From Bythopirellula sp. (GTDB taxonomy: Bacteria; Planctomycetota; Planctomycetia; Pirellulales; Lacipirellulaceae), in contig OZ245849.1 in NCBI GenBank assembly GCA_965228965.1, forward strand, positions 1,280,350-1,344,349: a stretch of 64,000 nucleotides of DNA. Reading direction: 5' to 3'. A model generated the notes under the pieces. That model did not search any database. It worked only from the letters and a program-made list of their open reading frames with translations, and was not told where the DNA came from. This document shows, one piece after another, positions 1 through 31,328 of the stretch (positions are counted from its first letter, which is position 1; every line of letters begins with the position of its first letter). The translations under genes and the position numbers were made by a program.

Positions 1-3000
1 CCATCGCTTCCAATTCCAGCTCATCAAATAGTGAGTCTCTGGATTCCCATCCAAGGTTCTCCTCGGAAACACCCACGGTTGACTCGAGAGTCTCATCGTC
101 GGTGGAGTTTCGCGCGGGCACGCGATAGTCGTTTCTCAGAACCCGGTCACGAACTGATTCGCGATAAGCGCTTCTCTCAAGAGTCGACTCTTCAATCAGC
201 GAATCAGGCAATGCTGAATCGATAGCGAGGAGCACTGCCGCATCTATTGCAATCAGCTCTGTTGGGCTGGTGGATCGCACTGCGGACGCAGCGGCAATAT
301 TCTCAGCAGTTGAGAAGGCGGCTTCCCCGGCAGCGAGACTCTGCAGCGCGCCTGTGCCATAGTCGGCTAGCCACTGACCTAAATCGTCGCTGTCGACGTC
401 GCCGTCGTTGTCGGCATCGCCATCGGCCTTGGTAGCATTGGGCGCCTGAATGCCAAACCCTCGCTGCCAGCTCAGGAAATCCGCGCCATCGACGTCGCCA
501 TCACCGTCGAAGTCGGCAGGTTCACCCGTTGCTAACAACTGGATGCCGAAGTTGACACCGCTGGTGGTCGAGCCGTTTAAGATCGTTTCGCGCTGCGCTC
601 GGTCGATCACGCGGTTTGCCAAGAACAACACCGACTCAGAGCCCAGTCCATTGGCAATAGCCAGGTCGAGAATCGGATCGTCGTCCAGCTGCGCCGCTAC
701 GATGCTCACTGCCAACGGGTTGGGTACCGCCGCCGACCCGGAAACCTCCGCTGTGAAACTGCCCGAACCGTCATTCCGCAGCAGCGTAAAACCTTCGTCA
801 CTGGCATTGGTCACGGCCAGATCAATGTCGCCATCGCCGTCTAGGTCCTCGGCGGTCAACGCCGTTGGCCCAAGTCCAGCTTCCGTGAACGATGGAAGGG
901 CAAAGTTTCCGGACTGATTGTTGACCAACAGTGCTACCTGGTTGGTTTCGGGTATGGTCGCCGCCAAATCCTGGAAACCGTCGCCATTGAAATCCCCGGC
1001 TACCACGGCGAACGGTCGACCGCCGACGTTCTTGGTGATTCGCGTGAACGACAAGCCTCCGTCGTTGAACAATGCACTCACCGTATTGGCGCCGGGAAAG
1101 AGGTCGACCCAGGCCAAGTCGAGGCGATCGGTGTCATCCACCACGAAATCACTGTTGTCGTCGGTAAGCTGCACGGTGATTAACGACGCTGGATCCTGGC
1201 CGTTGGCGATCGTCGGGGCCGGAGAAACGAACCCTGCTGGAATTCTCTCTAAGAATGAAACAATCGACTGGTTGACGTGCACGGTGACGATGTCGACATC
1301 GCCGTCTTGATCAAAGTCGCCTGGAGCGGTGAACCAGGGAGCGTACGGTGCAATGGCATCGGACCTCACGAAACCACCACTCTGGTTGTTCACCAACACC
1401 GACACAAAGTTCGTGCCCGCATAGCCGACGATCAGATCAACGTAGTCACCATCGTCGATTTGATCGTCGCTGTTGTCGTCGTCGAACTGCACAGCCTGAA
1501 TCGAAATCGGAGCCGCACCTACGTTAACGATCGTAGGAGCTTGGAAACCGCCTTGGCCATCGCCGAAAAAGACGGACAACGTTGTTTGACCAGCGTTGAC
1601 CACGGCAAGGTCTTGATTACCGTCGCGGTCGAAGTCGCCGCTGGCGATTGAGTTCGGCTGAGTTTGCGTTTCCAGGGAACTCGTGAGCGGTCGGTTGTCG
1701 ACGCCGGATGGTGAAGTTTGTGTGCCGTTGACCGGAACGACCACCCGCACGGCGTATTCCCCTGCGACCACGTTGTCAAACTGGTAGTCGCCATCCTGAT
1801 TGGTAACGTCCGTTGGTTCTCCGCCGTCGAGTTGACCGTTGTCGTTGAAGTCGAGGTACACCGTGACACCCGAGATCCCCAACTCGCCGGCGTCCTGATC
1901 GCCATCAGCGTTGATGTCGTTGAAAATCTGTCCGGCTAGATCTCCATTGCCGGAACCACCGATCCCTTCCTCGACATTGCCGAAATCGACACCAGTGCGT
2001 GACTCACCGGCATTCAGAAAGACGGTCTGGCTCTGATTTGCGGTTGGGAACGTCTGTACCCAACCCAGTTGGGGTACTTCGGCAATAGAGTAGGTGCGCT
2101 CGCTGGCCAAGTTCAGAAACTCGTAAGCGCCGTTGGTGTCGGTCACTACGAGTTGCTCGCCATCGTCGTGCTGCTGATTGTTGTTTTCGTCGAGGTAGAT
2201 CTCCCAGCCAGCGAGCCCAGGTTCGAACGGATCTTTAAATCCATCGCCGTTTAGATCGTGGAACTTCTGACCGCGGATCTCCCCAGGCAGTGCTCTAGCA
2301 CCAAAATCGATGTTTGAGAACGCGTCGCCCGTTCGGACGGTGACATTCCAGACGTCGACGCCGGGCACACCAAAGGCCGTTGCCTGGGACGCGGCGATCG
2401 GTCCATCGTCGGTTGAAGTCGCCGCCAAAGCGATTTGTCCATCGTCAGCTCCGCCTAGCGCAGCCAGGGCTCCTCCAGCCGAGACCTCGTAGGCACCAAT
2501 GTCGATCGTGGAGTTTTCAATGCGACTTTCGCCGCGCTGATCAGTCACGGGGGGCGATACTATCGCGCCATCTCCCACATCGATAGCTGGACTGCCATCC
2601 AGTAGCGAGTGTGTTTGTGTGGGGCCACCATTGTTCGCCAGTACCCCTAAAAGCGGGTCTAAAGGCGTACCGGAAGAACCAACTTGATCACCGGTGGCAG
2701 CAAACACGGCCCCATCATCGATCCCGATCAGATTGTATCCCTGCGAACTGAAGCCGCCCTGTATGTCTCGACCCCCACTCGTCGACGAATTGCCGGCGAT
2801 GATCGAGTGCGTGACACTGATGTCGGCACCGTAACTGGCAACACCGCCGCCAGCGCCATCGCCACTGTTGTTGGTAATCGTGCTATGCCTGATCGTTAGA
2901 TTGGCCACGTTGACAATGCCGCCGCCCAGCGACGTGGCCATATTCCCAGAAATCGTACTGGAGTCAATCGTAACCATACCGCCGTAAGAATAGATGCCAC

Positions 3001-6000
3001 CCCCGTTGTAGGCCATGTTGTTGGCAAGCGTGGTCCGAATCAAGTCTACCGTACCGCTGTAAGTAAATAGTCCGCCGCCGCCAGAGGAGGCAGAATTGGC
3101 AATATTGCCACTGAGCGTGGAGGCGGTTAGCGTGAGCGCACCACTCGCCTGGTAAATGGCGGCCCCCGATTCGTCAGCCGTGTTGCCGCTCGCTGCCACT
3201 CGCGTGAGCGATACAGTTCCGCCATCGTTGTAGATTGCGCCGCCGTCTTCCTCACCGGAAGCGGTCGCACTTCCACCTGTCAGCGTCAAATCAAGCAGGC
3301 TCAACGTCGCTCCCGAGGCGACATCGAAGAGACGGTCGATTCCCTGGGCGTCGATCGTCGTTTGTCCTGTGCCCGCACCAAAGATGGTGACGGACGTGGT
3401 CGCGGAAAACAGATCAAGGTCGCCGACCGTTGCGTTATTCGACTCGGTCCCTGTCAAGTTCAGCGTGTAGGTGAGCCCATCCAGCAGGATCGAAGTGATA
3501 CCCACCTGTTGATTAGCCTCCATGATCGCGGCCCGCAAACTCGTATTCCCGCTCGCGTCCAATGCCTGACCGTCGCCTGGGTTGGCATCAACAGTATCGG
3601 CCGTGGTGTTGACGATAAAGCCGCCGAAGAACTCGACCGAACCGATGTCCACGACAGCCGTCAGATTGTCGTCGCCGTCAAGGATTCGTCGCAAGTCGCG
3701 TTGGTCTTTTGGGCGTGCCTGCGTGTTGCTACCCGCGTCGATCAACGGGCTGCCGGCCATGGGGGCGTGGGTCAGTGTTGTGCCACCGTTGTCCTGCAAC
3801 GCACCCAGGAGCGGATCGATCGCACCGCTGCCGGCACTATCGCCAACCTGGTCGTCGTTAACCCCATCAACGAGCCCAGTTGCCGAGCCAATGTCGCCAA
3901 TCAGATTGTTGCCGAGCGAGACGAAACTGCCGGACACATCCACATCTGCGGTTGACGTGGATGAGTTGCCCGCGACCACGGTATTGAGCAAAGTTGCCGT
4001 TCCGGAGTTGACGTAAATGCCCCCAGCTTCGTCATCGGCCGTATTGTTGGTGATCGTCGAAGCCTCGACAGTCAAGCTGCCTGACTGCTGAAACACCGCG
4101 CCACCGCGCCGGTTGGATCCTGCAATAATCGAATTACCGGAGAAGGTGCTACTTGTGGCTGTGGCAGTCCCTTCGTTGTGCAGCCCGCCACCGTTACGGG
4201 CAACGTTGTTGGAGAAGGTGCTGTCGATAATGGTTACAGTTGCTGCGGCCAGATTCCGCAGACCACCACCATCGGAATTGGACATGTTGCCATCGATCGT
4301 TGCCGCCTCAATACGTACCGTGCCGCGGTTGAGGATGCCACCCCCGGCGGCATTGAGGCCTAGGCCGCTGCGGGTACCGCCAGTGATTGTGATCCCGCTG
4401 AAACCGGCAAACTGATCGGCGAGGACTTCAAACACGCGGTCGCCCAACCCGCTGGCGTCGATAATCGTAACGTCGGCACCGGCGCCCACGATACTCACGT
4501 GGTCAGTGATGTCGAGGTCGCCCGTGGCGGCAGCATTTTCACTCGCCCCTGACAGCGTGAGTGTATAAGTGCCTGGTCCGAGGGTGATCGTGTCGAACCC
4601 AGCCGAGGCATTGGCTTCTTGAATCGCAGCACGCAGAGAAGTTAGTCCGCCGGCATCCTGTGCCACGCCATCTCCGGGGGTGGCATCGACCGAATCGGTC
4701 GTCGTGTTCACGACAAACGTTGTTCCGCCTAAGTCGACTTCCACGGCACCGACGTCGATGGTTGCCACGCCGTCGGGTTCGCCATCGAGAACACGAGTAG
4801 TGCCACGCTGATCGGTGGCGGGTACACCGGTGCTATTGCCTGCATCAATGGCCGGACTGCCAGATTGGGGCACGTGTGTTTGCGTTGGACCGCCGTTGTC
4901 TTGCAGGGGGCCGAGCAGCGGATCGATGGGCGATAAGTCATCACCGACTTGGTCGCCGTTGACTCCGTCGGCGAGGCCGGTGGCATCACCGACATCGCCG
5001 ATAAGGTTGTTTCCTTCCGAGTTGAAGGCTCCCACCACATCCGAGCCATCGTCGTCCGACTGATTGCCTGCCACGATCGTGCTATTTAACTCGAGCGTCC
5101 CGCCTGCAGAAACGAAAATCCCACCGCCGTAGTAGCCGACGGGGCCCACGCGGCGGGCAAAGATTCCTTGGTCGTCGCCAGGTCCGTTTCCATCCCACAC
5201 GATGAAGCCGGATCCATCAGCGGCGACTGCAATATCGCCATCCTTTTGATCACCGGCAGTAGTCTGGCTGATTATCTCAGCTGCAGTGACGGGTTTCGCC
5301 TGCGCATTGTACTGTCGTACGTAAACATCTTGATCGCTTGCCCCATCAGCCTGAGCCGACCACGCAATCGCAAATCCGCCATTTGGAAGCGGCGCAATTG
5401 TCGGTGACATCCAGACCGTATCGGTAGATTGGAAAACCACGAACTCGTCGCCAATAGGAGTGCCCAACCGATCGAACTGCCGACCTCTGATCGAAGCCCC
5501 GCTCTCCCTCCACACCGCGACAAATCCAGAGTCGAGTGTGTAAATGGCGGTATCGAATAGAGGTGGTCCGGTGGATGCCTTTAGCTGAACGTCTCCTGTA
5601 AGCGCATTTAATGACGAGTCGAAAACGCGGGCTTCAATCGCACTCTGTTCGGACCAAACGACCACAAAGCCGCCATCGCTCCACAATCCAACGTCTTGTC
5701 TCAGCTGATTACCTGAAGAGTCGAGATTGGCTCGAACTTCGCCAGTAAGTGCGATTGCATCCAAGTCATACTGGCGGGCATACACGTCGCCAGGTGCACC
5801 AGGACTATCATGGATAACCACGTAACCGTTATCGGCAGCCGCCAGTTGTACCGAGGTTTGATTTCCTGCCTGCGTTTCATTCACTCGAAATGTGGACGTT
5901 GTCGAACCACTGAAGTCGGAATAATGCCATGCCCGAATTCCTACGCCATCGTTGTCGATCCCAGTACCGGCGAAGGCGATGATATGTGAGCCATCTGGCG

Positions 6001-9000
6001 CTACAGATACGGCGGGACGGTGGCGCCTGTTTGCCGATGCGTTGTTGACACGGAAATTTTCTCCGCTAAGAGATCCGTTTGGAAGGAATCGTTGCGCATA
6101 GACATCTTGGTCCTCGGTTCCTGATTCACCACCGTCCCAGGCGATTATTGAGTGGCCACTCGCATTCGTGCTGACATCTGCGAAGTCCTGCGTCCCTGTC
6201 GTGCCATCGTTGACTTTGAACTCGTTCCCAATTGGCTGGAGTTGCCTAAACGCACCAACTCCGGCAGCTGCATTGTCCGCAATCGTCGAGTTAGCAATAC
6301 TGGCCGTCGCAGTGGCCGTGCTAAAGAATCCACCTCCTTCCGCTGTTGCCGAGTTACCGCTCAGCGTGCTACTTCTGACCATCGCGGCACCATTGTTGTA
6401 AATTCCGCCGCCCGAGTCGGCACTATTTCCGCTGACGGTGCTACTATCTACGGTGAGCGTACCCAAGTTGGCTATGCCGCCGCCATTCAGAGCGAACTGT
6501 GCTGTATTGAACAGCAAGTTGACGGCACCTACATCTCGATTTGCAACGACCAGGTCGAGCCAGCCGTCACCATCAAAATCGGCCAGATCATTCTTGAAGG
6601 CGTCGTCTCCGACTTCAAATCTCTGTGGGCTTCTAAAGGTGCCATTGCCCAGACCTAGAAGTATGTGTATCGCTCCGTCGTCGAATGCCGACACGATCAA
6701 ATCTAGTGCACCGTCCCGATCGATATCGCCAGCTACGATATCACTCAGGATGGAGGGAGAAGCGGTCTCGATAGGAATAAGCGTCGCCGCCTGGAAACTC
6801 CCATCACCGTTACCCAAACGAAGGCTTATGGTTTGGGTCGTCGATCGACTAACAACTAAATCGAGATTTCCGTCTTCATTGAAATCTTCCAGCAGCACAA
6901 AACCGGCGTCATCCGCTTCAGGAATGGTCTCAGAGACACTGAATTGGAACGTCTCCGGGCCGCCTGACTGCTGACCAAACAGGACCGTGACACTTTCGCC
7001 TGCTTGATTACCTACCACAGCATCGAGCAGTGCATCACCGTTCAAAAAACCCAGTGCGACAGAACTAGAATTCGTATCGACGTTGTTGCTAGTGACCGTC
7101 GGAGCAGAACCTGGGTTGATCAACAGTAACAATAGACCCTGTGATGCACTGAAACCATTGGCTGCGACAATGTCTTCAACGCCGTCTCCGTTAACGTCCA
7201 CCAGTTCAAAGTCATTAAACTCTGTTCCAAAAGAGGCAAGCGGTACGGGCTCGACCGAAAAATTGCCGTTTCCATCGCCTGATAGGACTCGAATATCACC
7301 ACTTCCACCTCCGCCGGAACCATGAGTAACGACAATATCCGGATTCCCGTCACCGGTCACATCGGAATGCAGTCGAGCGCCTGACGGGCGGTTGCCGAGT
7401 CCCGGGATAACGGTTGGAGTAAAGACGCCCTGTCCATCATTGCGGAAAACGGTAATGCTCGCGTCGTCATAATTGGGCGCAATGAAGTCAATGTCTCCGT
7501 CGCCATCAATGTCGCCTGGTGATACTCCGTACGTTCCTCCACTCGCGGGATCGTATTCCTGTCTAGCAGCAAACAGCGTGTTCGGTCCAAACGACTGATT
7601 GTTGGATAGCGTAGATCGCGTAACGGTGGCAACAGCTCCGGTACTGTTATAGATTCCGCCTCCTGCTGCCCGCTCGGCGATATTGCCGTCAACCACGGCG
7701 CTGTCAACGTTCAGCATGCCACTGTTGCGGATACCTCCTCCAGGAGCACCATTGCTATTTCCACCTTGAAGGCTGATGAACGAAACCGACAAGCTTCCGC
7801 CAGCTAATACGTCTACCACACGATCCAATTCTGCCGCATCGACGATCGTCACATCAGCGCCGCTGCCCACAAGCGTGATGTTGGCTGTGATGTCTAGGTC
7901 GCCTGTGGCCGCCAGGTCTTCCTGTATGCCAGCAATGGATAGTCCATAAGTTCCAGGCGGCAAGGCAATCGTCTGCGCACCGCCCAAGGCGTTCGCTTCC
8001 ATCACGGCTGCTCGCAGTGATGTGTTGCCATTGGCATCGATCGCCAGGCCGTCACCAGGGTTGATGTCGACTGTGTCAAGCGTGGTGTTGACCAGGAAAC
8101 CATCCAGCACCTCAACCGCACCAACGTCCGCAGTGGCGGTCTGATCACCGTCGCCATCGAGTATTCGCGGCACACCGCGCTGATCAACCGCGGAAGTGGT
8201 GGAATTGTTGCCTGCATCGATCGCCGGACTACCAGATTGTGGCACGTGTGTTTGCGTTGGACCACCGTTGTCTTGAAGAGGGCCCAGCAGCGGATCGATG
8301 GGCGACATTGCCGTCCCGACTTGATCACCGTTGACTCCGTCGGTGAGACCCGTCGCGTTGCCCACCTCGCCAATCAGGTTGCCCGCGAGAGAAGTAAACC
8401 CGCCCACGATGTCGGGGGCATTGTTCCCCACCGCATTAGCCGCTACTAGGGTGTTTTGCAGATTGACTGTACCGCCATCGGCGTTGTAGATCCCGTTTGC
8501 AAACTCCAGCGGCGTCTGGAAGCGCCGCGCATAGATCCCTACCGCATCGGTATCGCCATTACCGTGCCAGACGACGACGGCATTGCCATCAGCGTCGAGA
8601 TCGACTCGCGAGAAAAACTGTCCCACTTCGGCTGTTGTCGGGACGATGAATTCATCGCCAAGCGGATTACCATCCGCGTCGAATGCCCTAGCGTAGATGA
8701 CGTCACTTACGGCCTCCGACCAAGTAACGACGAACTGACCGCGTCGATTCATGCCCACGTCCGACGTGCCGTGGTCGCCGATGCTGTTTTGATTGACCTG
8801 GAATTCGTCACTGAGTGGGTTGCCGGACAGATCAAACCGACGCGCGAAGACGTCCGAATTGCCATCGACGTGTCGCGTGCCCCAGCTAATCACGACCTGG
8901 TCGGCATTCATTTCGACCGATGGAACCGTTTGATTATCGTTGGTGGCGTTGTTCACGCGAAATTCTGATCCACGCGGCGAACCGTCGACGTTGTACAGCT

Positions 9001-12000
9001 GCGCATAGATCCCCGAGAGCGATCCATCCTGGCCGTCGCGGTCTTCCCAGACCACGATCGACTCGCCGCTGGCGTTCATGGCAGCCGTCAAGCGCTCCTG
9101 CCGACCGGCGGTGGTCGTGTTCACAGTAAGCGGCCCGGCGATGGTACTGTCGACAACGTCGTACCAACGGGCCCGCGCCGCAGAATCGCTTCCGTCGGCA
9201 CTGGAGTCCTCGTCTTGCCAGGCAACCAGCAGGTTGCCATCGTCTGCCAATGCAGACCAGGGCATTCTCTGCTGTCCGGTGACACTTGTGTTGACCGAGA
9301 AGGCGCTCGTCAACGGCGTGCCGTCAGACGCGAAGCGGCGGGCGAACACGTCGAAGAGGTTACCACCATTCCCACCCCCGTATGCGACGACGAAGTCGCC
9401 ACTGTCATTTATGCTGACATTCGGAAATAGTCGATTCTCGGCACTGCCTGGCGAGATTTGAAATACAGGACCGAGCGTCCCGCTGTCCGCGGAATAGATC
9501 CGCCCAAAGATCTCGTTTGCCTGGCCGGTATGGCCACTCTCCCAGGCGACGACGTACTGTCCGTCCTCGTTCATAGCCAGGTGGGCTTGCTGCTGCGATG
9601 AGTTTACTGTCGCATTGACGCGAAACTCGTCGCCGTCCGGCTCAAGGAACGTTGCGGCTGTCAGTCCCGAGACGGAGTTATCGGTCACAGTCGTGCTAGT
9701 AATGTTTGCGACAGCCGTGGCAGAGTTATAGATGGCCCCCGCTTGGGTCGTGGCTGCGTTCCCGCTGAAAGTACTGTTGGTGATCGTGGCGGTGCCATCA
9801 TTCCAGAGACCGCCACCCGCGTCGGCGTTGTTAGTACTGATCGTACTGGCGTCGATCGTAACGTCGCCAAAGTTGGCTACGCCACCGCCGACGGGAGTAA
9901 CAGGCGCGCTGAATGTGCGTGCGAATATTCCATCTGGATCACCTGGTCCATTGCCAAACCACGTCGACCAAATCTTGTCGGCGCTACTGGCCGCCATTCG
10001 AATTCGGCTCTGCGCTAAAGCAGTTGTCTCATTGACCAAGAACTCGGGCCCAGTTGGCTGGCCCGCGGAATCTAGGCGCCTGGCAAACACATCTTGCTCA
10101 TCGTCGGTGACCCAAATGCGCCAGCTAAGAAGAAACCCTCCATCATCGAGCGCCGTCAGGTGCGGGACCGTATTTTTCTGCGCTGTGGTAGAAACCACCA
10201 CGATTTCACCGCCCACTGGGTTACCCATCAAGTCGAAACGCTGTCCCAGCACATCAAAGCCATTTCCCCCGGCAGGTGCACTCTCCCAGATAACTAAGAA
10301 TCCATCGTCGGTAGCAGCGACATTTGAGAACGCCTGATACGGCAAGCCAGCCAATGTTTCTACTGGAGATGTATTGACTGTGATTTCAGCGTTGATGCCT
10401 CCCAGCAGACTGCCGGACGCATCGAAACGAGAGACGTAGATCGCGTCGATGGGATCACTCGTTGTAAGTCCTGAATGACTCTGCCAACTGACGTAAAAGC
10501 TGCCGTCATCGGCCATAGCTACATCTGGGCTTACCTGCATATTGGTTGTAGTTGAGTTGATCAAGAACTCACTGCCCAGAGGATTCCCATTTGAGTCGTA
10601 TCGCCTGGCAAACACATCGTACGTAGCACTGGCTCCACCATCTCGATCAACCCAAACGACGACAAACTTTCCATCAGCTGCCATGCTAATCGTTGGCCGC
10701 GTCTGATCGCCGACCGAGGTCGTGTTGACCTGAGTAGGCGCACCGAGGGGCGTGCCACCGGCATCATAGCGCTGCAACAATATCCCAGCACCGTCGCCAT
10801 CGCCTTCCGCATCAATTCCGTACCAGACCACAGCAAATCGACCGGAATCGTCGATCGCCACGCGTTGATCTTCTTTCGTGCCAGTCGCAGGCGAGACAAT
10901 GATTTCTGAACCCACAGATTGCCCAGTTGCATCATAACGCTGCGCACGAATGGAACGCTGATCGGGAGCATCGTTCTCGAAGCTGGTCCAGGTAACTACG
11001 GTCTGGCCAGCGTCGTTTGTAGCGACGTCCGGGTTGTACTCCATGCCCGCGTCACTGGTATTAATCAGGAACTCAGCGGAGGCATCCGTTAGAAATCCAG
11101 CGCTGGCAGACGCCAGATTGTCGCGAACAGACGACGCCAGAAGTTGAAGTGTGCCGAGATTGCGAACGCCGCCACCTTCGGTAACGGTTGCGCCACCCGT
11201 AACCGTAACGCTCGACAGCGTAAGACTTCCCCCACTGCGCACATCGAACACCCGGTCGATCTGCGCCGCATCAATGGTCGTTTGATCGGCACCATTCCCG
11301 ACAATCGTGATCTCCGCGGTGACATCCAAGTCACCGGTAGCAGCAAGGTCTTCCCCGACGCCCAGGATCGTCAGCGTATACGTGCCAGACGCCAGGATGA
11401 TCGAGTGCGATCCACCCAGGGCGTTGGCTTCCATGATGGCGGCGCGCAAACTAGTGTTGCCTGCGCCGTCCTGAGCCACACCGTCGCCCGGGTTAGCATC
11501 GACGGTGTCCAGCGTGCTGTTGACCAGAAAACCGGCGACAAACTCCACGGCACCAATATCGATCGTTGCCGCCTGATCGCCATTGCCGTCTAAAACGCGG
11601 GGAGCTCCGCGCTGATCGGTGACCAGAGAACCGGCGCTGCCACCTGCGTCAATCGCTGGGCTGCCGGCAAGCGGAGTATGGGTCAACGTCGTACCGCCGT
11701 TGTCGGCGAGCGGACCTAGCAGCGGATCAATAACGCCGCTGCCTGCGCTGTCACCGACCAAGTCGCCGTTCACTCCGTCGCTAAGACCCGTGGCCGTGCC
11801 GATGTCGCCGATCAAGTTGTTGCCCAGCGAAGTGAAGTTGAGTCCCGCCAGGTCCGCTCCACTCGAACCGGTGTTCGCTGCGACAATCGTATTCTGCAGT
11901 GACACGCTCGCACCGACGTCAAGTCGTTCGATGCCTCCACCGGCACCGGTCGCCGAATTGGCGGTTATCGTGCTACTCGTCGCGATCAAGGTGCCCTGGA

Positions 12001-15000
12001 CACTAAAACCGCCGCCTTGAGTCGAAGAATTTCCCGATACCGTGCTATTGTCCAACGTGAGGGTGGTTGCGCCGTTGAGAAAGACGCCGCCGCCGGTGCT
12101 CGTTGTCGAATTGTTGGAAATCGTACTCGCTGTCACTTCGACCGTCCCAGAATTGACGCTTATGCCACCACCACTAAGAGCCATGTTGTTGTCGATAGTG
12201 CTTTCAACGATTGTCGTCTGGGCCGAAAAATCGTTGTGAAGACCACCGCCGATGTTGGTCGACGTGTTGTTGCGAATATCGACTCGAGTCAGTGAAGTCA
12301 GACCGCCAGAGATGGAGATGCCGCCACCTCTACTCGTGGCGTTGTTCATACTGAAAGTCGAATCAACAATCGTCACGGTTCCGCTATGAATCAGCAATCC
12401 ACCGCCATCGTCCGCGCTTCCGCCCGTAACCGTTAGGCCACTGAAGTCAACGATTGCGCTATTCAGAACTTCAAACACGCGATCGAGGCCCGCTGCATCG
12501 ATAGTCGTTGATGAAGCGCCTGCACCGATGAACTCGATATTGGCCGTAATATCGAGGTCACCCGTTGCAGCTAAGTCTTCGCTTGCCCCGGCAATCGACA
12601 GCGCGTAGGTCTCAGCACTCAATAGAATCTTGTGCGTGCCGCCCAGCGCGTTGGCCTCCATGATTGCCGCACGCAAACTTGTGTTGCCAGAAACATCCGA
12701 CGCAACTCCATCGCCGAGGTTGACGTCGGGCGTGTCGGAAGTGGTGTTCACAATAAAACCATCGAACACCTCAACGGCACCGATGTCGAACTGTGCGAGC
12801 CCATCATCGTCTCCGTCGAGTGGTCGTGGATTGCGACGTTGGTCGTCAGCTGGAGCACCATTACTTGTGCCCGCATCGATTGCTGGGCTGCCCGTCAGCG
12901 GAAGGTGGGTTTCAGTTCGACCGCCGTTGTCAGTTAACGGCCCCAACATCGCGTTGACTACGCCGCTCCCCGCGCTGTCGCCGACAATGTCGCCGTTCAC
13001 GCCATCGGTAAGCCCCGTCGCCGAACCGATATCGCCGATTAGGTTGCTGCCACCGGAAGTGAACGGACCAACCACATCGGCGTCGCTTGCCGTGCCGGTG
13101 TTGCCGGCGACAATCGTGTTGACTAGCGTAAAGGCACCACTGCCGGTCGAGATGCCGCCGCCCGTGGTCGCCGTGTTCTCGGTGATGGTAACGTTGGTGA
13201 GCGTGACATCGTCGGAGTTAATTTTGATCGCACCGCCTGGGCCGTTGGATTGGTTGCCTGAGAAGGTGCTGTTGGTGATGATCAGCGGCCCACTGGCCAT
13301 GATCCCGCCGCCATAGGTCGTAGCCGTGTTGCCTGAGATCGTGCTGCCGCTGATGGTTGCCAGGTGATTCTGCGTGCGAATACCTCCGCCAAAGCCACCT
13401 GAATTGCCGGAGATTGTCGAATCGATGATCGTTGCCGGTCGATTGGCTTCGATACCACCCCCACCGATGTTGCCGGAGATGATGCTCCGCGTGATCGTCA
13501 ACGCGCCTGAAGCGCCACCGACGCTGATTCCGCCGCCCGTGCTGTTGATGATCGACGAGTCGGACAGCGTAACCGGGCCACTGGGGTTGAATACCAGGAT
13601 AGTGCGCTGCCCCGCGTCGGTGTTGATGTTGCCATCAAACGTGCTACCGGTGATCGTCACGACTGGCGAGGTGGAATCGTCGATGTCGAGCGCCGCACCA
13701 TACGGTGCCTGATTCGTTCGAAAGACGCTTCCTGAAATGATTAGTTCGCCACCATCAAGGCTAATTGCTCCGCCAAACTGGTCGGAGGAATTGTTCTCGA
13801 AAGTGCTATTCGAAATATCTATGGTCGATCGAAAGCCACTGATGGCTCCGCCTGGCCCTCCGACCGAACTGTTGCCCACTACCTCCACAGTATTCAAAAC
13901 CAAAGTCTGGCCGTTGCCGACCTTGATGGCACCACCGTCGGCGACAGATCCATCCGTAAGTGTCAGGTTTTGAAGTGTGAGCGTTCCGCCCGCCCGGACG
14001 TCAAATAGGCGATCGAGCGTGTTGGCGTCAATTGTGGTGACGCCCGGACCGGCTCCGACAATGGTGATGACACTAGTCACGTCGAGATCACCGGTGAGTG
14101 TTGCGTCTTCACCGGTGCCGGCAATCGTTAGTCCATAGGTGCCGGCTGACAGCTGAATGGTGTCGTCGCCGGGCAGCGCGTTGGCTTCCATCACGGCGGC
14201 ACGCAAGGTTGCATTTCCCGCATTGTCTTCGACAATTCCATCCCCCGGAGTGACATCGAGTGAGTCGCTCGTGCTGTTGACCACCAAATTGATGGGACCC
14301 GCAACGGCAATGGCCGCCGCAAACTCAGAAGTGTTTCCACCAGGATCAGTAGCCGTCGCGGAAATGAATTCCCCTAACACTGTGCCTGCAGGCAATAGCA
14401 GATCGAAGCTGGCGTTACCTGAACTGTCGGTGGTAACATCCCTGGATGCAAGGAACCGTTCGGCTTCGCCATGCCCAGCGGCGTTGGCTGAAGAGTTGGC
14501 GTAGAAATCGATTGCAAAGGTGGTATCCGCTGCGCTGTTGATTGTGCCAACGATTTGAGTATCTACCCCGTCGGTACGGGCTGACGAGAACACCGGATAG
14601 TTTTGTAGATTATTCGGTCCCGTATCCACATCGTTCAGATCGTTGTTCGTGACGCCGTTGTCCCCCAGATCGATGGGAATGCCCCCATTGGTATCGCTGG
14701 CGAAGATCTGATTGAGCCGGAACAGATTCCCAGTCCCAGTCCCATCGAGACGAATTCCCTGCTGCGTGTTATACGCGATGATATTCGCCTCAACGTTGTC
14801 GCGCGTTCCATCCACGTCGGATCCGATCCGATTCCCCGAGCCGGATACCACCACACCAGTGAAGATCCCCGAGGCGCCATTGCCCATCGCCCCGGTTCCG
14901 GTTGCATCGACGCCGATAAAGTTGCCTGCCACAATATTGTTGCCGCCGGACGTCATGCGAATGCCTTCGCGACCATTTCCAGAGACGATGTTCCGCTCTT

Positions 15001-18000
15001 CTGTGTCCGACGTGCCGTCCGCATCGGTACCAATTCGGTTGCCCGTGCCGTTCAGCAAAACGCCCGCGCCGAGATTGCCCAGTGCGACCAATCCGGTAAC
15101 GTCGGTGCCGATTCGATTCCCTGCCAGGGTATTGTTGTCACCGTCTAGGTCGACGGCATGCGTCGCATTTGGGGTACCGGAGCCACCAAAGCCACCCGAG
15201 ATGAGATTCCCTTCGACATTGTCGGAGACACCATCACCGTCGGTACCAATGCGATTGTTATCGCCGAGGATCCTGACGCCTCGGCTCTGATTTCCCGTTC
15301 CGATGATTGTGGAACCCGTGAGATCGGTACCAATAAAGTTTCCAGCAATGGTGTTGCCGTTGGCAGATACGAAGACTCCCGCCGCATTACCGGAAATCAG
15401 ATTGCGCTCCTGCTGGTCATTGATGCCGTTGCCATCGGTCCCCACGAAATTCAGCGTTCCGCTGGCGATGTGCACTCCGAAGCCCAGCGACGTCACTGCC
15501 TGGGTGCCCGTTAGATCTGTCCCAATGAAATTTCCCTGAATTCGATTGTTATTGCCGCCTACCGATATGTTTGCCAGGCTGCTGCCTGAGATGATGTTGC
15601 GTGCGTCCGGAGATGGGCCCCCCAGCAGATTGTTGTCGGATTGAATCGACAGACCTTGTTGTGTTCCACCGGGGTGAGACGATCCGCTAATATCGGTGCC
15701 CAAGAAGTTTCCTTCCAGGACGTTACCGGCACCGACACGTATGTCGATCGCCTGACCTTCGAAACGATTGATCACCAAACCACGGATCTTGCTGCCACCG
15801 GCATCGATGAACAATCCGTCGGCGTTCGCACCCGCATTGGTTCCGTCCAGTTCGATCATCAAGACGGCGTTGCTGGCCTGATCGATCAGATTCGTATTCG
15901 GACTGGCACCCGACTGCGAGTAGCCATCGATGGTCAAAGGATCGGAAATCGTGGGGAGCTGCGTCAACGGCTGGATAGTGTGCGGACCCGCTCCGCCAAT
16001 CGCAAACTCGATCACATCGAGTCCGGGATTGTTGTTTGCATCGATGATCGCCTGACGCAGTGAACCAGCCCCGCTGTCGTTGGTGTTGGTCACCAGCAGC
16101 GCGGTGGCTGACACATCAGGGCTCGTCTGCTCCCATCCGTCCTGCAAGATAAGGCGCACACTGTAGGTCAGCCCCGGCACGACCCCACCGATCGTGTAGC
16201 TGCCATCGCTGGCTGTTACGGCCGACGGCTCGCCCGCGTCGAATTGCCCGTTGTCGTTCACGTCGACATAGATCGTCCATCCTTCCAGCGGCGGTTCGCC
16301 GCCGTCTTGTACACTATTGCCATCAAGATCGTGAAAATGCACACCGCTGATCGTGCCGTAGAATCGTTCGACTGCCCCGATGTCGACTTGCGTAGTGGAA
16401 TCGTCATTGCCGTCTTGTGGACGCGCCACCAGACGTTGATCGGTGGCCGGCGCACCAATATCGTCACCGGCATCAATCGCCGGGCTGCCTGGCAACGGCA
16501 CATGGGTGAGCGTCGTACCCGTGTTGTCTTGCAGGGGCGATAACAGCGGATCGATTTCTGATCCGTTCGATCCAACCAAGTCGCCTGTTCCTACTCCGAA
16601 CCCCGTTGCTGAACCCCCGTCGCCGATCAGATTGTTGTTTAGGGACGTAAATGCTCCCGCCACGTCCGGATCAGTTGCTGCCGTGTTGGCCGCGACGATC
16701 GTATTGTGCAAGCTCGCAACACCGCCGGCATGGCGGATTCCTCCGCCCGTCTGCGCGTCGTTGAGTGTGAAAGTGGAACTCACTACGGTTGCGGAACCGG
16801 CAGACATATGGAGCCCGCCACCGTCGCCAGTTGCCGTGTTCGTCGAAACCGTGGTATTCGTGAGCAGCAGCGTAGACACACTGGCAATTGCACCACCGTC
16901 CGTCCCCGCCTGATTGCCAGACAGCGTGGTACGTGAAATTTCGACATCGCCGCCGACGGCAACCGCAATTCCACCCCCCAGTCCACTCGCCTGGCTACTG
17001 ACGACTGCGCTATCACTTAGCGTCAAAGACGCGCCGTCGACCAGCAGCGCACCGCCATCGCCAGTGACCATGCCACCGGAAATGGTCACTCCCGACAGGA
17101 CGACTGTCACGCCTGGACGCAGATCGAACACTCGATCGAGGCTCGCAGCGTCGATGATGGTCTGGTCCGCCCCAGCCCCGACGATGGTCAGCGTTCCAAC
17201 CGTATCGGTGATATCCAAGTCGCCCGTCGCAGCCAAGTCTTCGCTAGCCCCGCCAAGGCTGAGCGAAAAGGTGCCGGACGCGAGAAAAATGGTGTTGTCA
17301 CCTACTTGAGCATTCGACTCTTGGATTGCGGCGCGGAGGGTAGTTGCTCCCGACGCATCAACGGCGTTTCCATCCCCTGGATTTGCGTCGACCGTGTCGG
17401 CGAATGCATCGACGAAGAACTCACCCGGATTGCTGAGGTCAACGGCGAACGAACCGATGACCGTGCCAGCTGACAAATTGCCCTCGGTGTCGCTTACTTG
17501 ACCTGAAACCAGCGCTATCTCGTAGTCGCCGTTGTCTAGCGTATCCCACGTGCCTCCAGGTGGTTGCATTTCGTACTGCGCTACGCGTACGGGACCGTTG
17601 CTGCCAACATCAACTGAGGCAAAAGTCGCGGTAAACGTCACACCGCTCCCATCGAGCCTCGTGACGATGACATCCAGGTCGTCGAGCGTGCTTACGTCCA
17701 CGCCCGTTGTATCCCTGTATTCGATCGTGATCGTCTGCGGAGTCGTCCCTGTGAGCGTGATATCGAGTGCGCTGTTCAGCGTTGGTTGGGGCGCGAACGT
17801 ATCGGTTTGTAGCGCCCCTAGGGCGCTAAGCCTGCCATCCGACACGACCTTGTCTTGAAATACCGGCAGCGACTCTGCACCTGATAAGATTGCGGCCTTC
17901 ACTTCGGCCGACGTTGCGCCCTCGTTCTGCGAATACAACAGGGCTGCGACACCCGCGACGTGTGGGGCCGCCATACTCGTGCCGCTTCGCACTCCGGTGA

Positions 18001-19420
18001 CATCTCCGATTTCCGTACTCAGGATCCCGACGCCCGGCGCTGCAATGTCTACCGTGGTCTCACCGAAGTTACTAAACCGCGCAATTCCATCGATTCGATC
18101 AGAGGCGGCCACGCTGATGATCGAGTCAAATCCATAGTTGGCCGGATAAAAGGGCAGATTGTCATTGTCCACGCCGCCGAAAATGTTGCCGTTACCTGCT
18201 GCTGCCACGAAAAATATGTCCGCCGCGTCACTAGCCGCAATTGCTTGTTGCAATGCAAAGTTGAAGGTGTTTCCACCCCAACTATTGTTCATCACGCGCA
18301 AATTAACCGGATCAACCGACCGCGTTCTCATCATCGTTGCGTAGTTGATCGCTTCGATCGCATCCGAAGTGAATCCAACATTGTTCTCGCCGAGGAACTT
18401 GAGCGGCATGATCGAGGTGTCCCACGCCACACCTGTGACATCGATGCCGTTGTTCCCTACCGCACCCAGAGTCCCAGCGACGTGGGTGCCGTGGCCATGG
18501 TCGTCCATCGGACTGTTATCTTCGTTGCGAAAGTCCCAGCCGAATAGATCATCCACGAAGCCATTGCCATCGTTGTCCACGCTGTCGACCCAATTGGGGT
18601 CGAGCAACAGATCACTCGCATCGATGACATTGTCGAGGTTGGAGTCCACGACCTCACTGGCGTTCGCCCCGTCGAGCTGCAGGTCCGCAAACGTGATGAC
18701 CATGTCGGCATCGGTATCCACGATCCCAGCAGGAATCTCACCCGGATTGATCCAAATGTTGTTCGCCAAATCCTGATGGTTGAGATCGATGCCAGTATCG
18801 AGCACCGCTGCGACGATCTCAGGACTGCCAGTGGTGATGTCCCATGCCAGTGCCGCATCAATGTCAGCGCCTGGTACACCGCCTTCTAATCCTTCGTTGT
18901 TCAAGCCCACCAGCAGATCACTCTGGTACGAAGGGTCGCTAGGTGTCGCTTGTGCGGTGAGTGTGGTATCACGCTCGAAGTAAGCCAACAGCTCAGAGGT
19001 AGACAACCAAGCTTGTGCCTCTGTGCGATGAGTCGTTGGTGTCGCGACCAACAGTTGTCCGGGCAAACCCAATCCGCGCGTCACCTGGACCGGAGCATTG
19101 TCGTCGTCGAACAATGCCATCACGTCGGAGATCGATGTGCTCTGGGCAATCGCTTCGGGTGTGAGTCGGATAATCCAACGGTCGGTCGACGTGGACTCGC
19201 TCGTGGTTTCCGGGTCATTCGCACCAACGTCACCCAGCGCGCCGATCGGGGATTCCTCAGCCTGTCCAAACCATTGGGGGCTAACTTGGTCGTACGTCGT
19301 CAACGAAGAGCTGGACAGAACCAGACGGGCTTCCAGTTGCTCGATGTGCAGTTGACGCGTTTGGGTTGAACCCGTCACTTCAACGGACCGATTGCGCCAG
19401 CGTTTCTTTTGAGGTGCCAT
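1..19420 (-). CDS. Giant multidomain secreted/cell-surface protein. 5' end complete; 3' end lies beyond the left window edge (6,473 codons in window). Contains an N-terminal S8 subtilase, repeated parallel-beta-helix modules, three 7x repeat arrays, FG-GAP/VCBS arrays, SdrD-B-like folds and dockerin-like loops.
   Basis: ATG at 19420-19418 with GGAG 9 nt upstream. In-frame upstream stop at 19633-19631, and the only other upstream start is a TTG at 19474. I hand-translated the minus frame (codon first base = 1 mod 3) and it stays in frame and protein-like at 19420, 18797, 18491, 17975, 8975, 4860, 2599, 514, 418 and 4. The ORF track lists no ORF in this frame between 1 and 19420. The other two minus frames hold only ORFs of 140 aa or less. 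This is the expected pattern if the frame has no stop codon in the window. Confidence 0.9.
356..514 (-). other. Two dockerin-like / EF-hand-like Ca-binding loops
   Basis: Checked codon by codon: [21 protein letters not shown] (514-452) and [21 protein letters not shown] (418-356). The reading frame continues past position 1 (...[12 protein letters not shown]). Confidence 0.7.
650..1660 (-). repeat. Second FG-GAP/VCBS-type repeat array
   Basis: [18 protein letters not shown] (about 1600-1650), [45 protein letters not shown] (about 820-870) and [17 protein letters not shown] (about 650-700). Confidence 0.65.
1720..2290 (-). other. Two tandem SdrD-B-like folds
   Basis: [41 protein letters not shown].. 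([20 protein letters not shown] checked at 2220-2161), then [42 protein letters not shown]... Confidence 0.6.
5147..6223 (-). repeat. Array C: 7 tandem ~55-aa repeats of the same family
   Basis: Starts [11 protein letters not shown] at 6223 and ends QGIFARRV at 5170-5147. 7 units counted. Confidence 0.55.
6530..7560 (-). repeat. FG-GAP/VCBS-type repeat array (integrin-alpha-like propeller)
   Basis: Repeated Ca-loop motifs: [12 protein letters not shown] (about 7500), [53 protein letters not shown] and [14 protein letters not shown] (about 6545-6590). Confidence 0.7.
8515..9628 (-). repeat. Array B: 7 tandem ~55-aa repeats of the same family
   Basis: Starts [11 protein letters not shown] at 9628. 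One unit checked codon by codon: [12 protein letters not shown] at 8977-8942. Ends GIYARRFQ at 8538-8515. 7 units counted. Confidence 0.6.
9905..11074 (-). repeat. Array A: 7 tandem ~55-aa repeats (EF.VN..T.G.Q..P.VA....G.FVV.W......DG...G[IV]FARR[FY]D..G.P.G), probably a 7-bladed beta-propeller
   Basis: Hand translation starts [29 protein letters not shown] at 11074 and ends GIFARTFS at about 9908-9931. I counted 7 units. Confidence 0.6.
14530..16000 (-). repeat. Short-period parallel-beta-helix (PbH1-like) repeats of the form N-x-I-x-G-N-F-I-G-T-D-x-x-G
   Basis: Example: 15360-15301 translates as [19 protein letters not shown]. The same N.I.GN.IGTD pattern recurs about every 22-25 aa through this stretch. 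The block ends with an ...[13 protein letters not shown]... type segment near 14300-14530. Confidence 0.6.
16130..16400 (-). other. SdrD-B-like / Cna-B-like Ig fold
   Basis: [54 protein letters not shown].. (the [20 protein letters not shown] part was checked at 16260-16201). Confidence 0.6.
17900..18900 (-). other. Subtilisin-like serine peptidase (S8) domain of the giant protein, with an intact catalytic triad
   Basis: Hand translation gives [15 protein letters not shown] (Asp codon 18799-18797), [15 protein letters not shown] (His codon 18493-18491) and [14 protein letters not shown] (Ser codon 17977-17975). VMNNSWGG lies between them near 18290. Order and spacing are typical of subtilases. 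Confidence 0.85.
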
Positions 19421-19721: not shown

Positions 19722-22145
19722 CTAGTACGTCAGCTCGCTGCCGAAATAGAAGTTGATCCCTGGTTGAAAAACAGCGATCCCGCTTTGCGATCGAAAGTCG
19801 AGGTGTTCTCGATAGTTCTTGTCGGTGAAGTTCTCGACTCCCGCAACAAGTTGAAGTCCGTCGGCGGCCCGCCAGAACGTGCGGATGTCATAGGTTGTGA
19901 AGCCAGGCGTCGGTGATTCCAACAGCGAGGCGGCAACACGATTCTGGTTGTCGACAACGCGGGCGTAGAACTCGATTCCCCAATTGGCGACGTCGTCGGG
20001 CGGGCTCAGGCGCAATCCAATCCGAGATTCCAGCGGAAGGATGCTCGGCAAAGGTTCGACACCTGCGCCAGTGACGCCACTAAATGCTCCGCGCACCATA
20101 CCGGGAACTCGCATGCTGGGGGAGCTTGATGTCGCCTCCCTCGTAGCGAAGGTGCCATTGCGCGTCCGATCGTCGCCTTCGACATATCGGACCGTTGCAA
20201 AGGGGCTCAACCAATCGTTGGCATCACATTCTAGTTGAGCTTCGCAGCCCCAGAGGAGCGCCCGCTCGGTGTTGACATACTTCAGGTTCACTTGCTCTGG
20301 GTCACCCACTGGGGGACCAGGTACGACTCGCAGGTTTTCGAACGTGATATAGTCGAATGCCCAAACGTTGTAGGCAACCACTCTACTACGCCAGCGCTCG
20401 CCGCTACGTGTGAGGCGAACATCCATCTGGATCCTGCGTTCCTTATCGAGGAGCGGATCGCCGGTCACCGTATTGAGACCGTTCTGTAAGAGAAACATGA
20501 AGGGCTGTACCGCATATCGCTCGGTGAGGTTTGGTGCGCGTTCGGCATAGCCAACACTCGCCCCGGCGGACCACTCCTGGTTCAGCTGACGGTTGACCGA
20601 TACGAATCCTGAGCCTAGCAGGTCGTTCTGATCGAACACATCGCTGCCCAGGATATCGGCAGCAGGCACTTCGATCGTGCCCACACTCGATAGTTCATCG
20701 GTAGTTGCTTCGATGTTGGTGCCGACCCAGTCAATTCGTGCTCCGGTCGTCACGGTCGTGCGCTCATTCACCGGTTTAGCGAACTCGACGAACAGCCCAG
20801 GATTGGAGGCGTGCGAACGCGGAATCGGAGAATTTGCGTCCGTCCACACCTGGAACCCGAGCACACCGCTCGTGATTTCGTTGAGTTCCTGTCTTACATA
20901 GCGCAGGTCGGCTCCCGCGGTTAGCAACTCGTCATTCGTACCGTCCCAACTGAAGGCAGCTCGGTAGCCCGTCGACATCGATTCGACGTCAGTATTGCCG
21001 ATGAACCGGAGGAAATCCAAGAAGGGAAACTGACGACGCTTGCCAGACCGCTGCGCACTGCCTTCGAATCGCGTTAAGTTGTACCACGAGTCGAGAACCA
21101 ACCGGTCAAAGTAGTAGTGATCACGCATCACGTAGGCGATGTCGTAGCCATCGGTAACCAGGAAATCGATATCGAAAGCTTGTCCAGGCAACTCCACGTC
21201 GGTTTGATCAAGACGAATGTAGGAGGCGTCCAGCGAATCGTATTCGTTAACTTCGCCGCCGATCGCTGCGAATACATCACGAGACTTGAAGCTGGACGGG
21301 ATCCCGTCACCATCGCCGGTCACATAGTCGTTGCCAGTTGTATGCCCGTAACTCGCGCGGAAGCCCCAATTACTAGCGCCGCCCCAAGCACGCTGCCTGC
21401 CATACCATTGCTCCCCATTCGTACTAAAATCGACGATCGATTGACCGTGGTACTCAGGACCGCTTGCGTAGCGAGGAGCCCGCAACAGCGCGACGTCCAT
21501 AAATTCAAAGCCTGGGCCATATAAGGCACTGTACGGTCCTGGGATAATCGTGGTCTGCTCGATGATTCGCGAGTCGATCTTGCTGAGTACCGTGTCCAAA
21601 TCAATCCGCGCTGGCACCCAGTGCGAACCTGAGGCGGCTAGACTCCCGACTCGACTGCCGCGTACTCGTGGGTCGGTAACGATCGGGTTGCGTCGCTGCA
21701 CACCGGTGTTCAACACCGATGGCGATGTGCCCAGTAAGTCGCCCGTATCGGTCGTCGATCGAATGAAGGACTCGGCACCCAACACGCTGTTTGCGCTCGC
21801 GAGGTTCGCGTAGTTAACCGTTCCCGGGAGGGCTAGACTGGGTCGTTGGACTCCAAAAGAGCTGAACAACTCCTGATTTGCTCCGATGGCGCTGGAAGGC
21901 AGTGGCACGGGCGCATTGGCTTCCGCACTAGGCAGCGCAGGACTCTGAAACTGTGTAGGTTCAACCAGTCCCATCGCCATGCTAAAGTCGCTGACGAGAA
22001 TGTAGCCATCAGATTGATCTGCGTCGTAGTTGTCGGAGATTGAACCGGTTGCTGGTTCGCGACTGGACGCAATCGCGAAGTCGCATGACCAACAGCAGAG
22101 CATCGCGGCAATGCAAACCGCGCGGCGCAGGTATTGTCGCGTCAT
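19722..22145 (-). CDS. TonB-dependent-receptor-like outer-membrane beta-barrel with plug domain
   Basis: 807-aa ORF. Signal-like N-terminus. Plug-like segment NPIVTDPRVRGSRVGSLAASG...IIEQTTIIPGPYSALYGPG. Long beta-rich body ending in GINFYFGSELTY with a terminal aromatic residue. Confidence 0.75.
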   Translation of the reverse strand: MTRQYLRRAVCIAAMLCCWSCDFAIASSREPATGSISDNYDADQSDGYILVSDFSMAMGLVEPTQFQSPALPSAEANAPVPLPSSAIGANQELFSSFGVQRPSLALPGTVNYANLASANSVLGAESFIRSTTDTGDLLGTSPSVLNTGVQRRNPIVTDPRVRGSRVGSLAASGSHWVPARIDLDTVLSKIDSRIIEQTTIIPGPYSALYGPGFEFMDVALLRAPRYASGPEYHGQSIVDFSTNGEQWYGRQRAWGGASNWGFRASYGHTTGNDYVTGDGDGIPSSFKSRDVFAAIGGEVNEYDSLDASYIRLDQTDVELPGQAFDIDFLVTDGYDIAYVMRDHYYFDRLVLDSWYNLTRFEGSAQRSGKRRQFPFLDFLRFIGNTDVESMSTGYRAAFSWDGTNDELLTAGADLRYVRQELNEITSGVLGFQVWTDANSPIPRSHASNPGLFVEFAKPVNERTTVTTGARIDWVGTNIEATTDELSSVGTIEVPAADILGSDVFDQNDLLGSGFVSVNRQLNQEWSAGASVGYAERAPNLTERYAVQPFMFLLQNGLNTVTGDPLLDKERRIQMDVRLTRSGERWRSRVVAYNVWAFDYITFENLRVVPGPPVGDPEQVNLKYVNTERALLWGCEAQLECDANDWLSPFATVRYVEGDDRTRNGTFATREATSSSPSMRVPGMVRGAFSGVTGAGVEPLPSILPLESRIGLRLSPPDDVANWGIEFYARVVDNQNRVAASLLESPTPGFTTYDIRTFWRAADGLQLVAGVENFTDKNYREHLDFRSQSGIAVFQPGINFYFGSELTY

Positions 22146-25714: not shown

Positions 25715-26577
25715 AGGGTATGTCTCTCACCAGAATGCAGGATGCAAAGCAATCGCGTCCATTGCGGCTGTTGTTAGCCGCTAAAGTCTAGCAGGTTGAG
25801 TTTATCAGAATCGATGCGGCAGATTGAGTCTCGTCATGTGCAAATTTCTTTAACTAAGTCACTCGGATCTGGCTAAGTTGCTACCTCCGCGCGAGCAATT
25901 CCCCCGATCCCGCAGTGGCATTGGAGCAGCGGAAGCAACTACTGAAGATTAATACTCCTGTCAGCGAGACATGGAATTTCGAACTGTCAAAGATCGTTGG
26001 CTGGAGTAAGCGCACGCAATTCCGGCGAGCCCCACAGCTGTTCCGGTGAGCTCGACCCGCCGCGACGGAGTCTCGCAGCACCTGTGGCGATCATCATCGT
26101 CGCCCCTCGGTTGGGGTTTTGCTACACAGAAAGCCACAACGCGTTTGTGTCGCAAAAATCCCGCTCTCTGTGTGCGAGCAAAGCTCGTAACTCGCACGTC
26201 TTCCATGGGTTAGGAATTCTCCTCGGTGAAAACTGGGCAGACTTTCCGGAATTTGGTGCCCGAGTGTGTCTGAAAAAGCAATTTCCAAGATCCCCTTAAG
26301 TCGTTGCTGGTGAAGCGTTTGCATGCGTGTCGACTTTTTGACCACAGTGTCCTAAAAATTCTCAGCCTGCGGAAACAGCCACTCGACGCACAACGTCATC
26401 GTGTCGAAACAGTTCTTATCAAGTTGCCAAAGAGCGTGTGACCTATTGCAAGGCACCGCCATTCTAACTGAACTGGTGGCCCAAATTCATCAACTAATTT
26501 TGGGCCAGCGAGGAGGGCTGTCGTTTCGATTCGAATTGCGAATCGATGAACAATCCGATTGGAGAGTCTGCACCAAA

Positions 26578-31187: not shown

Positions 31188-31328
31188 GGCGGTTGAATTG
31201 TGAAAGGTGAAGAGTGAAAAGTGAAAACGGTTCCATTCCCCTCCCTTGCAGGGAGGGGCTAGGGGAGGGGAGAGCCGCCTGGTAGTTCTCCCTCACCTAA
31301 CCTCTCCCGACAGCGGAGAGGAACATGA

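Follow-up and report, generated by a model that had tools for sequence, protein, structure and literature searches.

Within a 64,000-nucleotide stretch of Bythopirellula sp. DNA (GenBank assembly GCA_965228965.1, contig OZ245849.1, positions 1,280,350 to 1,344,349 of the forward strand; hereafter the window), one giant open reading frame (ORF) holds three arrays of a repeat of about 55 amino acids (aa). On the strength of predicted models, we read each array with high confidence as an autonomous, closed seven-bladed β-propeller of ~360–390 aa. Alignment of the surrounding modules further indicates that the arrays are cassettes, placed at two fixed sites in β-helices of the CSLREA/choice-of-anchor-Q type. 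The array fold is of a known kind; the family to which the arrays belong is very large and is unnamed in curated resources. The giant ORF lies on the minus strand, as do all the features described below; it occupies positions 2..19420, counted from its first methionine at 19420 (MAPQKKRW...), and encodes at least 6,473 aa, its C-terminus being cut by the window edge. The open frame itself extends from 19630 to 2 (6,543 codons), is uninterrupted, and runs off the start of the window.

Each array was parsed into its units by eye and with a hidden Markov model (HMM), and each has seven. Array A1 (9905..11074; aa 2853–3242) has units that start at 11074, 10906, 10738, 10570, 10387, 10207 and 10045, with lengths of 56, 56, 56, 61, 60, 54 and 47 aa. 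In array A2 (8513..9628; aa 3335–3706) the unit starts are 9628, 9466, 9304, 9133, 8965, 8806 and 8653, and the lengths are 54, 54, 57, 56, 53, 51 and 47 aa. Array A3 (5147..6223; aa 4470–4828) begins its units at 6223, 6058, 5893, 5740, 5593, 5446 and 5281, with lengths of 55, 55, 51, 49, 49, 55 and 45 aa. An HMM built from these 21 units, when run against the six-frame translation of the window, retrieved exactly those 21 and nothing else. A non-circular HMM, derived from 626 units of unrelated proteins, recovered 20 of the 21 at scores of 18–58 bits; the best score among 600 residue-shuffled control arrays was 9.2 bits. The most degenerate unit is the fifth of A3 (5447–5593; aa 4680–4728): it scores 5 bits with the family HMM, and AlphaFold2 still models it as a normal blade (model strands 223–251). 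An earlier note, made by reading the same DNA, had described three arrays of exactly seven ~55-aa units, and the parse by eye and both HMMs agree with that description; its coordinates also hold, save that A2 ends at 8513 (the last codon) and not at 8515.

The units share a mean identity of 26%, which is the same within an array as between arrays, and there is no repeat in the arrays at the DNA level. Together, these two properties point to repeats that are old and diverged. They thereby bear out the age and divergence claimed in the earlier note, which had spoken of old, selected repeats rather than recent slippage.

To describe the fold we ran AlphaFold2 on A2 and A3, with alignments of 96 and 85 sequences, respectively. 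The A2 model has a predicted local distance difference test score (pLDDT) of 91 and a predicted template-modelling score (pTM) of 0.92; the corresponding values for A3 are 88 and 0.90. A1 is alignable end to end with both A2 and A3. According to DSSP, the two models are all-β, without helices, and contain for each of the seven units three long strands and a short one, which make up a four-stranded blade. Foldseek searches of the PDB with A2 and A3 returned as the top match the seven-bladed lectin CV39L (PDB: 6gxs), with a template-modelling (TM) score of 0.70. The seven-bladed lectins PHL (PDB: 6fhx) and PLL2 (PDB: 6rg2) scored 0.65, as did the seven-bladed polysaccharide lyase (PL) family enzyme PL42 (PDB: 7esn); two further seven-bladed enzymes, of glycoside hydrolase (GH) family GH145 (PDB: 5muk) and of PL25 (PDB: 5uam), scored ~0.61 and ~0.59. 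Six-bladed sialidases and NHL domains reached only 0.45–0.57. Sequence identity in these structural alignments is 10–15%.

The register of the blades was obtained by mapping the family consensus unit, EFRVNTYTTGDQRSPSVAMDADGDFVVAWESEGQDGSGYGVYAQRYDASGTPLGG, onto the DSSP string. Strand A begins at the conserved glutamine (Q..P.VA.D), strand B corresponds to G.FVV.W, and strand C to G[IV][YF]A[QR]R[YF]; strand D is supplied by the following unit, in its short opening ‘EF.VN’. In all three arrays, EF.VN comes first and the array stops once strand C (ARR[FV]) is complete, such that the last units of A1, A2 and A3 are shortened to 47, 47 and 45 aa. This arrangement is consistent with a ‘velcro’ closure of the 1+3 type, in which the N-terminal EF.VN strand would complete blade 7. 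Such a closure would place the N- and C-termini of an array side by side, and a propeller so built could be inserted, like a cassette, within one turn of a right-handed β-helix, the kind that the host modules form.

Another key observation concerns the number of units in relatives of these arrays. Seven units at a 55-aa period were present in 107 of 120 homologues. Among 79 loci from GTDB species genomes, with arrays cut by contig ends left out of the count, 87 arrays have 7 units, 5 have 14, and 1 has 21. Across the 150 representatives with the highest scores, the distribution of array spans has its main peak at 357–412 aa and smaller ones near 14, 21 and 28 units, and the unit totals of multi-array proteins are 14, 21 or 28. 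Thus a ring of seven is indicated from three sides: the units in each array, the multiples of seven among relatives, and the TM-scores, which are highest to seven-bladed structures. The seven-bladed propeller that the earlier note had suggested from the repeat count is upheld by the same results, together with the confident A2 and A3 models. It could be argued that AlphaFold2 can impose familiar folds on repeats; the arrays might then be an open β-sheet repeat, or a ring with another number of blades, in which seven is a coincidence. We find this hardly credible, given that hundreds of unrelated proteins have repeat counts of 7, 14, 21 or 28, that pTM values are 0.90–0.92, and that the best TM-scores are to seven-bladed structures.

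We also obtained an instructive view of the arrays in their host modules. Two consecutive parts of the giant protein, M4 (8210..11452; aa 2727–3807, from the CSLREA motif to GSPAIDAG; 1,081 aa) and M5 (4838..8020; aa 3871–4931; 1,061 aa), are members of the CSLREA/choice-of-anchor-Q type: both of the relevant NCBIfam models match these hosts above threshold. The choice_anch_Q model (NF041518), of which the giant protein has seven copies, scores 198 and 278 bits (cut-off 25), and CSLREA_Nterm (TIGR04214) scores 30 and 42 bits (cut-off 25). Plain modules of this type are 292–447 aa long; the two propellers inserted in each of M4 and M5 bring these to ~1,070 aa. When six modules were aligned with E-INS-i, the ends of M4 and M5 and their middle rungs could be matched to the plain modules, with two large inserts between the matching parts, at positions that are equivalent in M4 and M5. 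In M4, site 1 (aa 2855–3243) holds A1, and site 2 (aa 3324–3710) holds A2. In M5, site 2 (aa 4459–4834) holds A3, and site 1 (aa 4016–4378) holds an array of a different kind, namely FG-GAP/VCBS repeats (6497..7585; nine stretches of Pfam FG-GAP_3). The equivalence of these positions argues that the propellers are cassettes inserted into β-helix turns. Site 1 takes two unrelated propeller types, A1 in M4 and FG-GAP in M5, and this occupancy of the same site in neighbouring modules suggests interchangeable propeller ‘slots’. We hypothesize that the propellers would be displayed along the rigid β-helix stalk of a giant secreted planctomycete protein. Viewed in this way, the cassette in a β-helix neatly illustrates how domains can be inserted at fixed sites, and suggests how giant proteins diversify what they display. 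Our literature search on CSLREA/choice-of-anchor Q found nothing relevant.

No named family fits the arrays, and the family is without a curated name. When the three arrays were searched against Pfam at an expectation value (E) of ≤1, only noise was returned (DUF5044, CbiG_N and DUF7282, all below cut-off). Nine canonical relatives and a synthetic sevenfold repeat of the consensus gave, in the propeller region, only repeated fragments of one blade, with zero stretches reported for each; GH43, CopC and Glycoprot_B_PH2 are among the families so matched. As these matches are fragments without a significant stretch, the precomputed Pfam entries on relatives (PF24051, PF22847, PF19007, PF17417, PF04234 and PF04616) are not real assignments. 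Sequence-profile searches of the PDB, with alignments of 3 and of 96 sequences, found nothing at E≤10, and literature searches on PDIAV, on the motif strings, and on delta-60/DUF5122 found nothing relevant. The only significant matches to sequence models were to two Leptospira lipoprotein models of NCBIfam, NF053835 (‘PDIAV motif-containing lipoprotein’) and NF038383 (‘LIC12048 family lipoprotein’), and these are sub-threshold.

We considered the possibility that A1–A3 belong, as divergent members, to a repeat family named previously, either PDIAV (NF053835) or the delta-60 repeat (TIGR02608; Pfam DUF5122, PF17164, a β-propeller), and are merely poorly covered by the existing models. The kinship with PDIAV has some substance: NF053835 scores 38.1, 11.2 and 25.5 bits on A1, A2 and A3 (E of 1e-9, 0.17 and 8e-6) and 36.5 bits on the idealised consensus; it matches 47 of 85 relatives (best E 3.5e-17); and its length of 458 positions is roughly that of seven units preceded by a lipoprotein signal. 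Both Leptospira models have in common with the arrays a strand motif, P.[VI]A, and a period of ~55 aa. Set against this, every NF053835 match that we saw falls below the cut-off of 90 bits, and the arrays form part of a much longer ORF (more than 6,470 aa) rather than being stand-alone lipoproteins of ~458 aa, so we reject membership of NF053835. Moreover, NF053835 and NF038383 are equivalogs for whole Leptospira lipoproteins (PDIAV for a single one) and not definitions of a domain, and neither family has a known function; LIC12048 itself has been described as a predicted (hypothetical) outer-membrane lipoprotein with no known domain (PMC5406399). The delta-60 repeat, which occurs in bacterial surface proteins, has a model of 55 positions, the same period as our arrays; sub-threshold matches to it lie inside the arrays of 8 of the 85 relatives, the best scoring 55.3 bits against a cut-off of 76.5. 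Neither delta-60 nor DUF5122 matched A1–A3 at E≤1, however, and the DUF5122 match to one canonical relative has an E of 0.04 (14.6 bits; cut-off 27), so that membership here, too, is rejected; the delta-60 family, moreover, is itself uncharacterised. Overall, we regard assignment to either named family as rather unlikely. The earlier note had held that no established domain name applies, and this stands, given the empty Pfam, PDB-profile and literature searches and an NCBIfam result that is sub-threshold throughout. A caveat is the weak homology to the PDIAV and delta-60 models of NCBIfam, by which the repeat is not entirely devoid of named relatives. We found neither a clear match to a named family nor a non-propeller fold with a different repeat count.

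Two other repeat families can be set aside. FG-GAP/VCBS repeats, of the integrin-α type, resemble the arrays in several respects: they form seven-bladed propellers from units of ~55–60 aa, they are present elsewhere in this giant protein, and in M5 they fill the site that A1 fills in M4. In contrast to FG-GAP repeats, the arrays have no DxDxDG calcium loops; alignment with hhalign to the window’s own FG-GAP array gave a probability of 0.1%, and Pfam reported no FG-GAP match in the arrays. Kinship with SBBP (PF06739) is likewise rejected: A1–A3 have no Pfam match to this family, and in the relatives that are annotated as ‘SBBP repeat-containing’, SBBP lies at aa ~176–516 while the arrays lie at aa 1153–1966.

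The closest structural analogues are the lectins of the PLL family (PLL, PLL2, PLL3 and PHL of Photorhabdus, and CV39L of Chromobacterium violaceum; PDB: 5c9l, 6rg2, 6fhx and 6gxs), which are the best Foldseek matches with TM-scores of 0.65–0.70. These are single-chain seven-bladed propellers of ~350–370 aa that comprise seven similar four-stranded ‘W-motif’ blades, with N- and C-termini that lie close together; they are multivalent, with binding sites between blades (PMC6943638). The PLL lectins are small, free proteins with sites for fucose and O-methylated sugars between their blades, whereas the arrays are cassettes in a protein of more than 6,400 aa, and the sugar-binding residues of the lectins are not mappable onto the arrays. 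No sequence homology to PLL, PHL or CV39L was detected in the PDB profile searches, and identity in the structural alignments is 10–15%.

The family is widespread. A profile search of 1.84 billion cluster representatives (clusters at 50% identity are the unit of the count) found 69,334 proteins at E≤1e-3, of which 26,496 remain at E≤1e-30. Giant proteins with several arrays, up to nine each, are numerous among them; many other members, of 410–650 aa, consist of one array and a sorting or anchoring tag. A single peptide pattern, with the sevenfold consensus as query, yielded 531 confirmed stretches in GTDB species genomes. The stretches came from Planctomycetota, Cyanobacteria (many from Nostoc), Bacteroidota, Verrucomicrobiota and Alpha-, Beta- and Gammaproteobacteria, and additionally from Acidobacteriota, Chloroflexota, Actinomycetota and Sericytochromatia. 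In these presumed secreted or surface proteins, the partner domains include cadherin-like, Big_9, Ig-like, He_PIG, RTX, DUF11, Calx-beta, CarboxypepD_reg, PATR, SLH and dockerin domains, as well as the tail of the type IX secretion system. Of 95 complete homologues, 58 passed a crude test for an N-terminus that resembles a signal peptide. Some ~69,000 clusters that lack a Pfam model, a solved structure or a tested function make up a sizeable annotation hole in bacterial surface proteomes. Were the domain to be named, or its structure solved, a defined fold could be assigned to long stretches of many giant adhesin-like proteins that are now ‘hypothetical’; the small proteins with a signal peptide and one propeller offer easy targets for structure determination and ligand screens. 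We consider the system to be of moderate interest, for the size of this annotation gap and for the cassette-in-β-helix architecture, and not for an unusual mechanism.

Individual genomes can carry many of these genes: the metagenome-assembled genome (MAG) Planctomycetaceae MP5IB2.78 has at least nine propeller loci, and MAG RI_361, from another bacterium, has six. The presence of many propeller genes per genome indicates lineage-specific expansion.

As to function, we considered whether the propellers could be catalytic, as are sialidases and the propellers of GH43, GH145, PL25 and PL42. Sialidases, GH145, PL25 and PL42 are among the top Foldseek matches, and there are weak, repeated Pfam Glyco_hydro_43 fragments (profile positions ~105–188). 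Yet the columns that are conserved in at least 80% of 93 homologues are all positions of the repeat consensus, and none is specific to a blade; the lack of a blade-specific constellation argues against a single catalytic centre. Furthermore, a protein may hold up to nine arrays, the GH43 matches include no individually significant stretch and cover just one blade of a five-bladed fold, and six-bladed enzymes score lower TM values than do the seven-bladed lectins. We accordingly do not assign the arrays to GH33, GH43, GH145 or PL25, and consider a catalytic role very unlikely.

Instead, the extracellular nature of the partner domains, and nearest structural analogues that are multivalent lectins, point to a non-catalytic binding module. 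We propose that the propellers, which we infer to be extracellular, would use their variable loops to bind a ligand outside the cell, most plausibly a glycan or some other surface polymer. This binding role, argued by analogy, we offer as a tentative proposal that falls somewhat short of an even chance. A further reading is that the propellers lack a ligand of their own, and serve as inert spacers with a purely structural role, giving stiffness or bulk to a giant surface protein. The restriction of conservation to repeat-core positions would fit such spacers, as would the loss of conserved family loop motifs from the window copies and the acceptance of an unrelated FG-GAP propeller at one insertion site. 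What a spacer role hardly explains is the existence of thousands of small proteins in which a signal peptide and a sorting tag are almost the only additions to a single array; in addition, the canonical family retains polar loop motifs (NTYT and QDGS) in all of its blades. We judge the spacer reading to be unlikely. Taking the parts together, we favour, as a reading that is somewhat probable as a whole, closed propeller cassettes that are set in a β-helix and serve as non-catalytic modules for binding or display. A more ambitious version, that the repeat defines a large, phylum-spanning and as yet uncurated class of seven-bladed propellers for multivalent extracellular binding (lectin-like or calcium-dependent), with the choice-of-anchor-Q helix as a display scaffold in whose fixed slots unrelated propellers (the present one or FG-GAP) are swappable, seems to us doubtful.

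Several considerations weigh against the reading that we favour. The start predicted for the giant protein is without a classical hydrophobic signal peptide. It is from strand patterns, TM-scores and alignments, and not by direct sight, that we deduce a seven-fold ring, a velcro pairing of strands and a β-helix that continues across the inserts. A binding role would depend on context and analogy, and the likeness to lectin folds, at 10–15% identity and with no sequence-profile link, is uninformative on specificity. Insertion into choice-of-anchor-Q modules was not found in the 270 other family proteins that we examined (150 + 120), so the propeller-in-β-helix arrangement may be lineage-specific. 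Finally, the units in the window have largely lost the loop motifs NTYT, QDGS, S31 and D20, while the core (G23, W29, the hydrophobic strands and A-R) is kept. If the loop motifs are the working site, the window copies may be inactive scaffolds; more generally, these copies may have another ligand or serve chiefly as scaffolds.

The remainder of the giant ORF was laid out with Pfam and NCBIfam scans. Pfam families Peptidase_S8, Beta_helix, FG-GAP_3 and SdrD_B matched, as did NCBIfam models choice_anch_Q (seven times) and CSLREA_Nterm. The N-terminal part contains a subtilisin-like S8 protease domain (17867..18817; aa ~272–588; Peptidase_S8, E 4e-48), which is followed by the seven CSLREA/choice-of-anchor-Q modules; the layout also includes one further β-helix, SdrD_B domains, two FG-GAP arrays, and dockerin-like repeats. 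The second FG-GAP/VCBS array lies at about 596–1678. Near the C-terminus, a motif scan found two calcium-loop repeats of the form D-x-[DN]-x-[DN]-G (347..514; aa 6373–6428); no Dockerin_1 match was reported by Pfam at E≤1e-3, and the label ‘dockerin-like’ thus describes the motif only. The motif ‘LE.R.[LV]LS’ is present near the N-terminus of the giant protein (19240–19420; aa 71–130 of the frame); it is found at the start of many large secreted planctomycete proteins. A β-helix of a second kind was noted at 14290–16063 (aa ~1190–1780): it has a CSLREA-like SLRQAI followed by ‘GN.IG.D..G’ rungs and, unlike the seven canonical modules, does not have a choice-of-anchor-Q ending.

We also noted several neighbouring genes. 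Directly upstream of the giant gene is an ORF of 807 aa (19722–22145) with a match to a TonB-dependent-receptor β-barrel (E 2e-16). Beyond this lies a Ser/Thr protein kinase of 1,123 aa that is fused to a long tetratricopeptide repeat (TPR) region (22358–25726). Further along, a DUF1501 protein adjoins a PSCyt2/PSD1 (DUF1549/DUF1553) protein (29922–33173), a gene pair that is typical of Planctomycetota.

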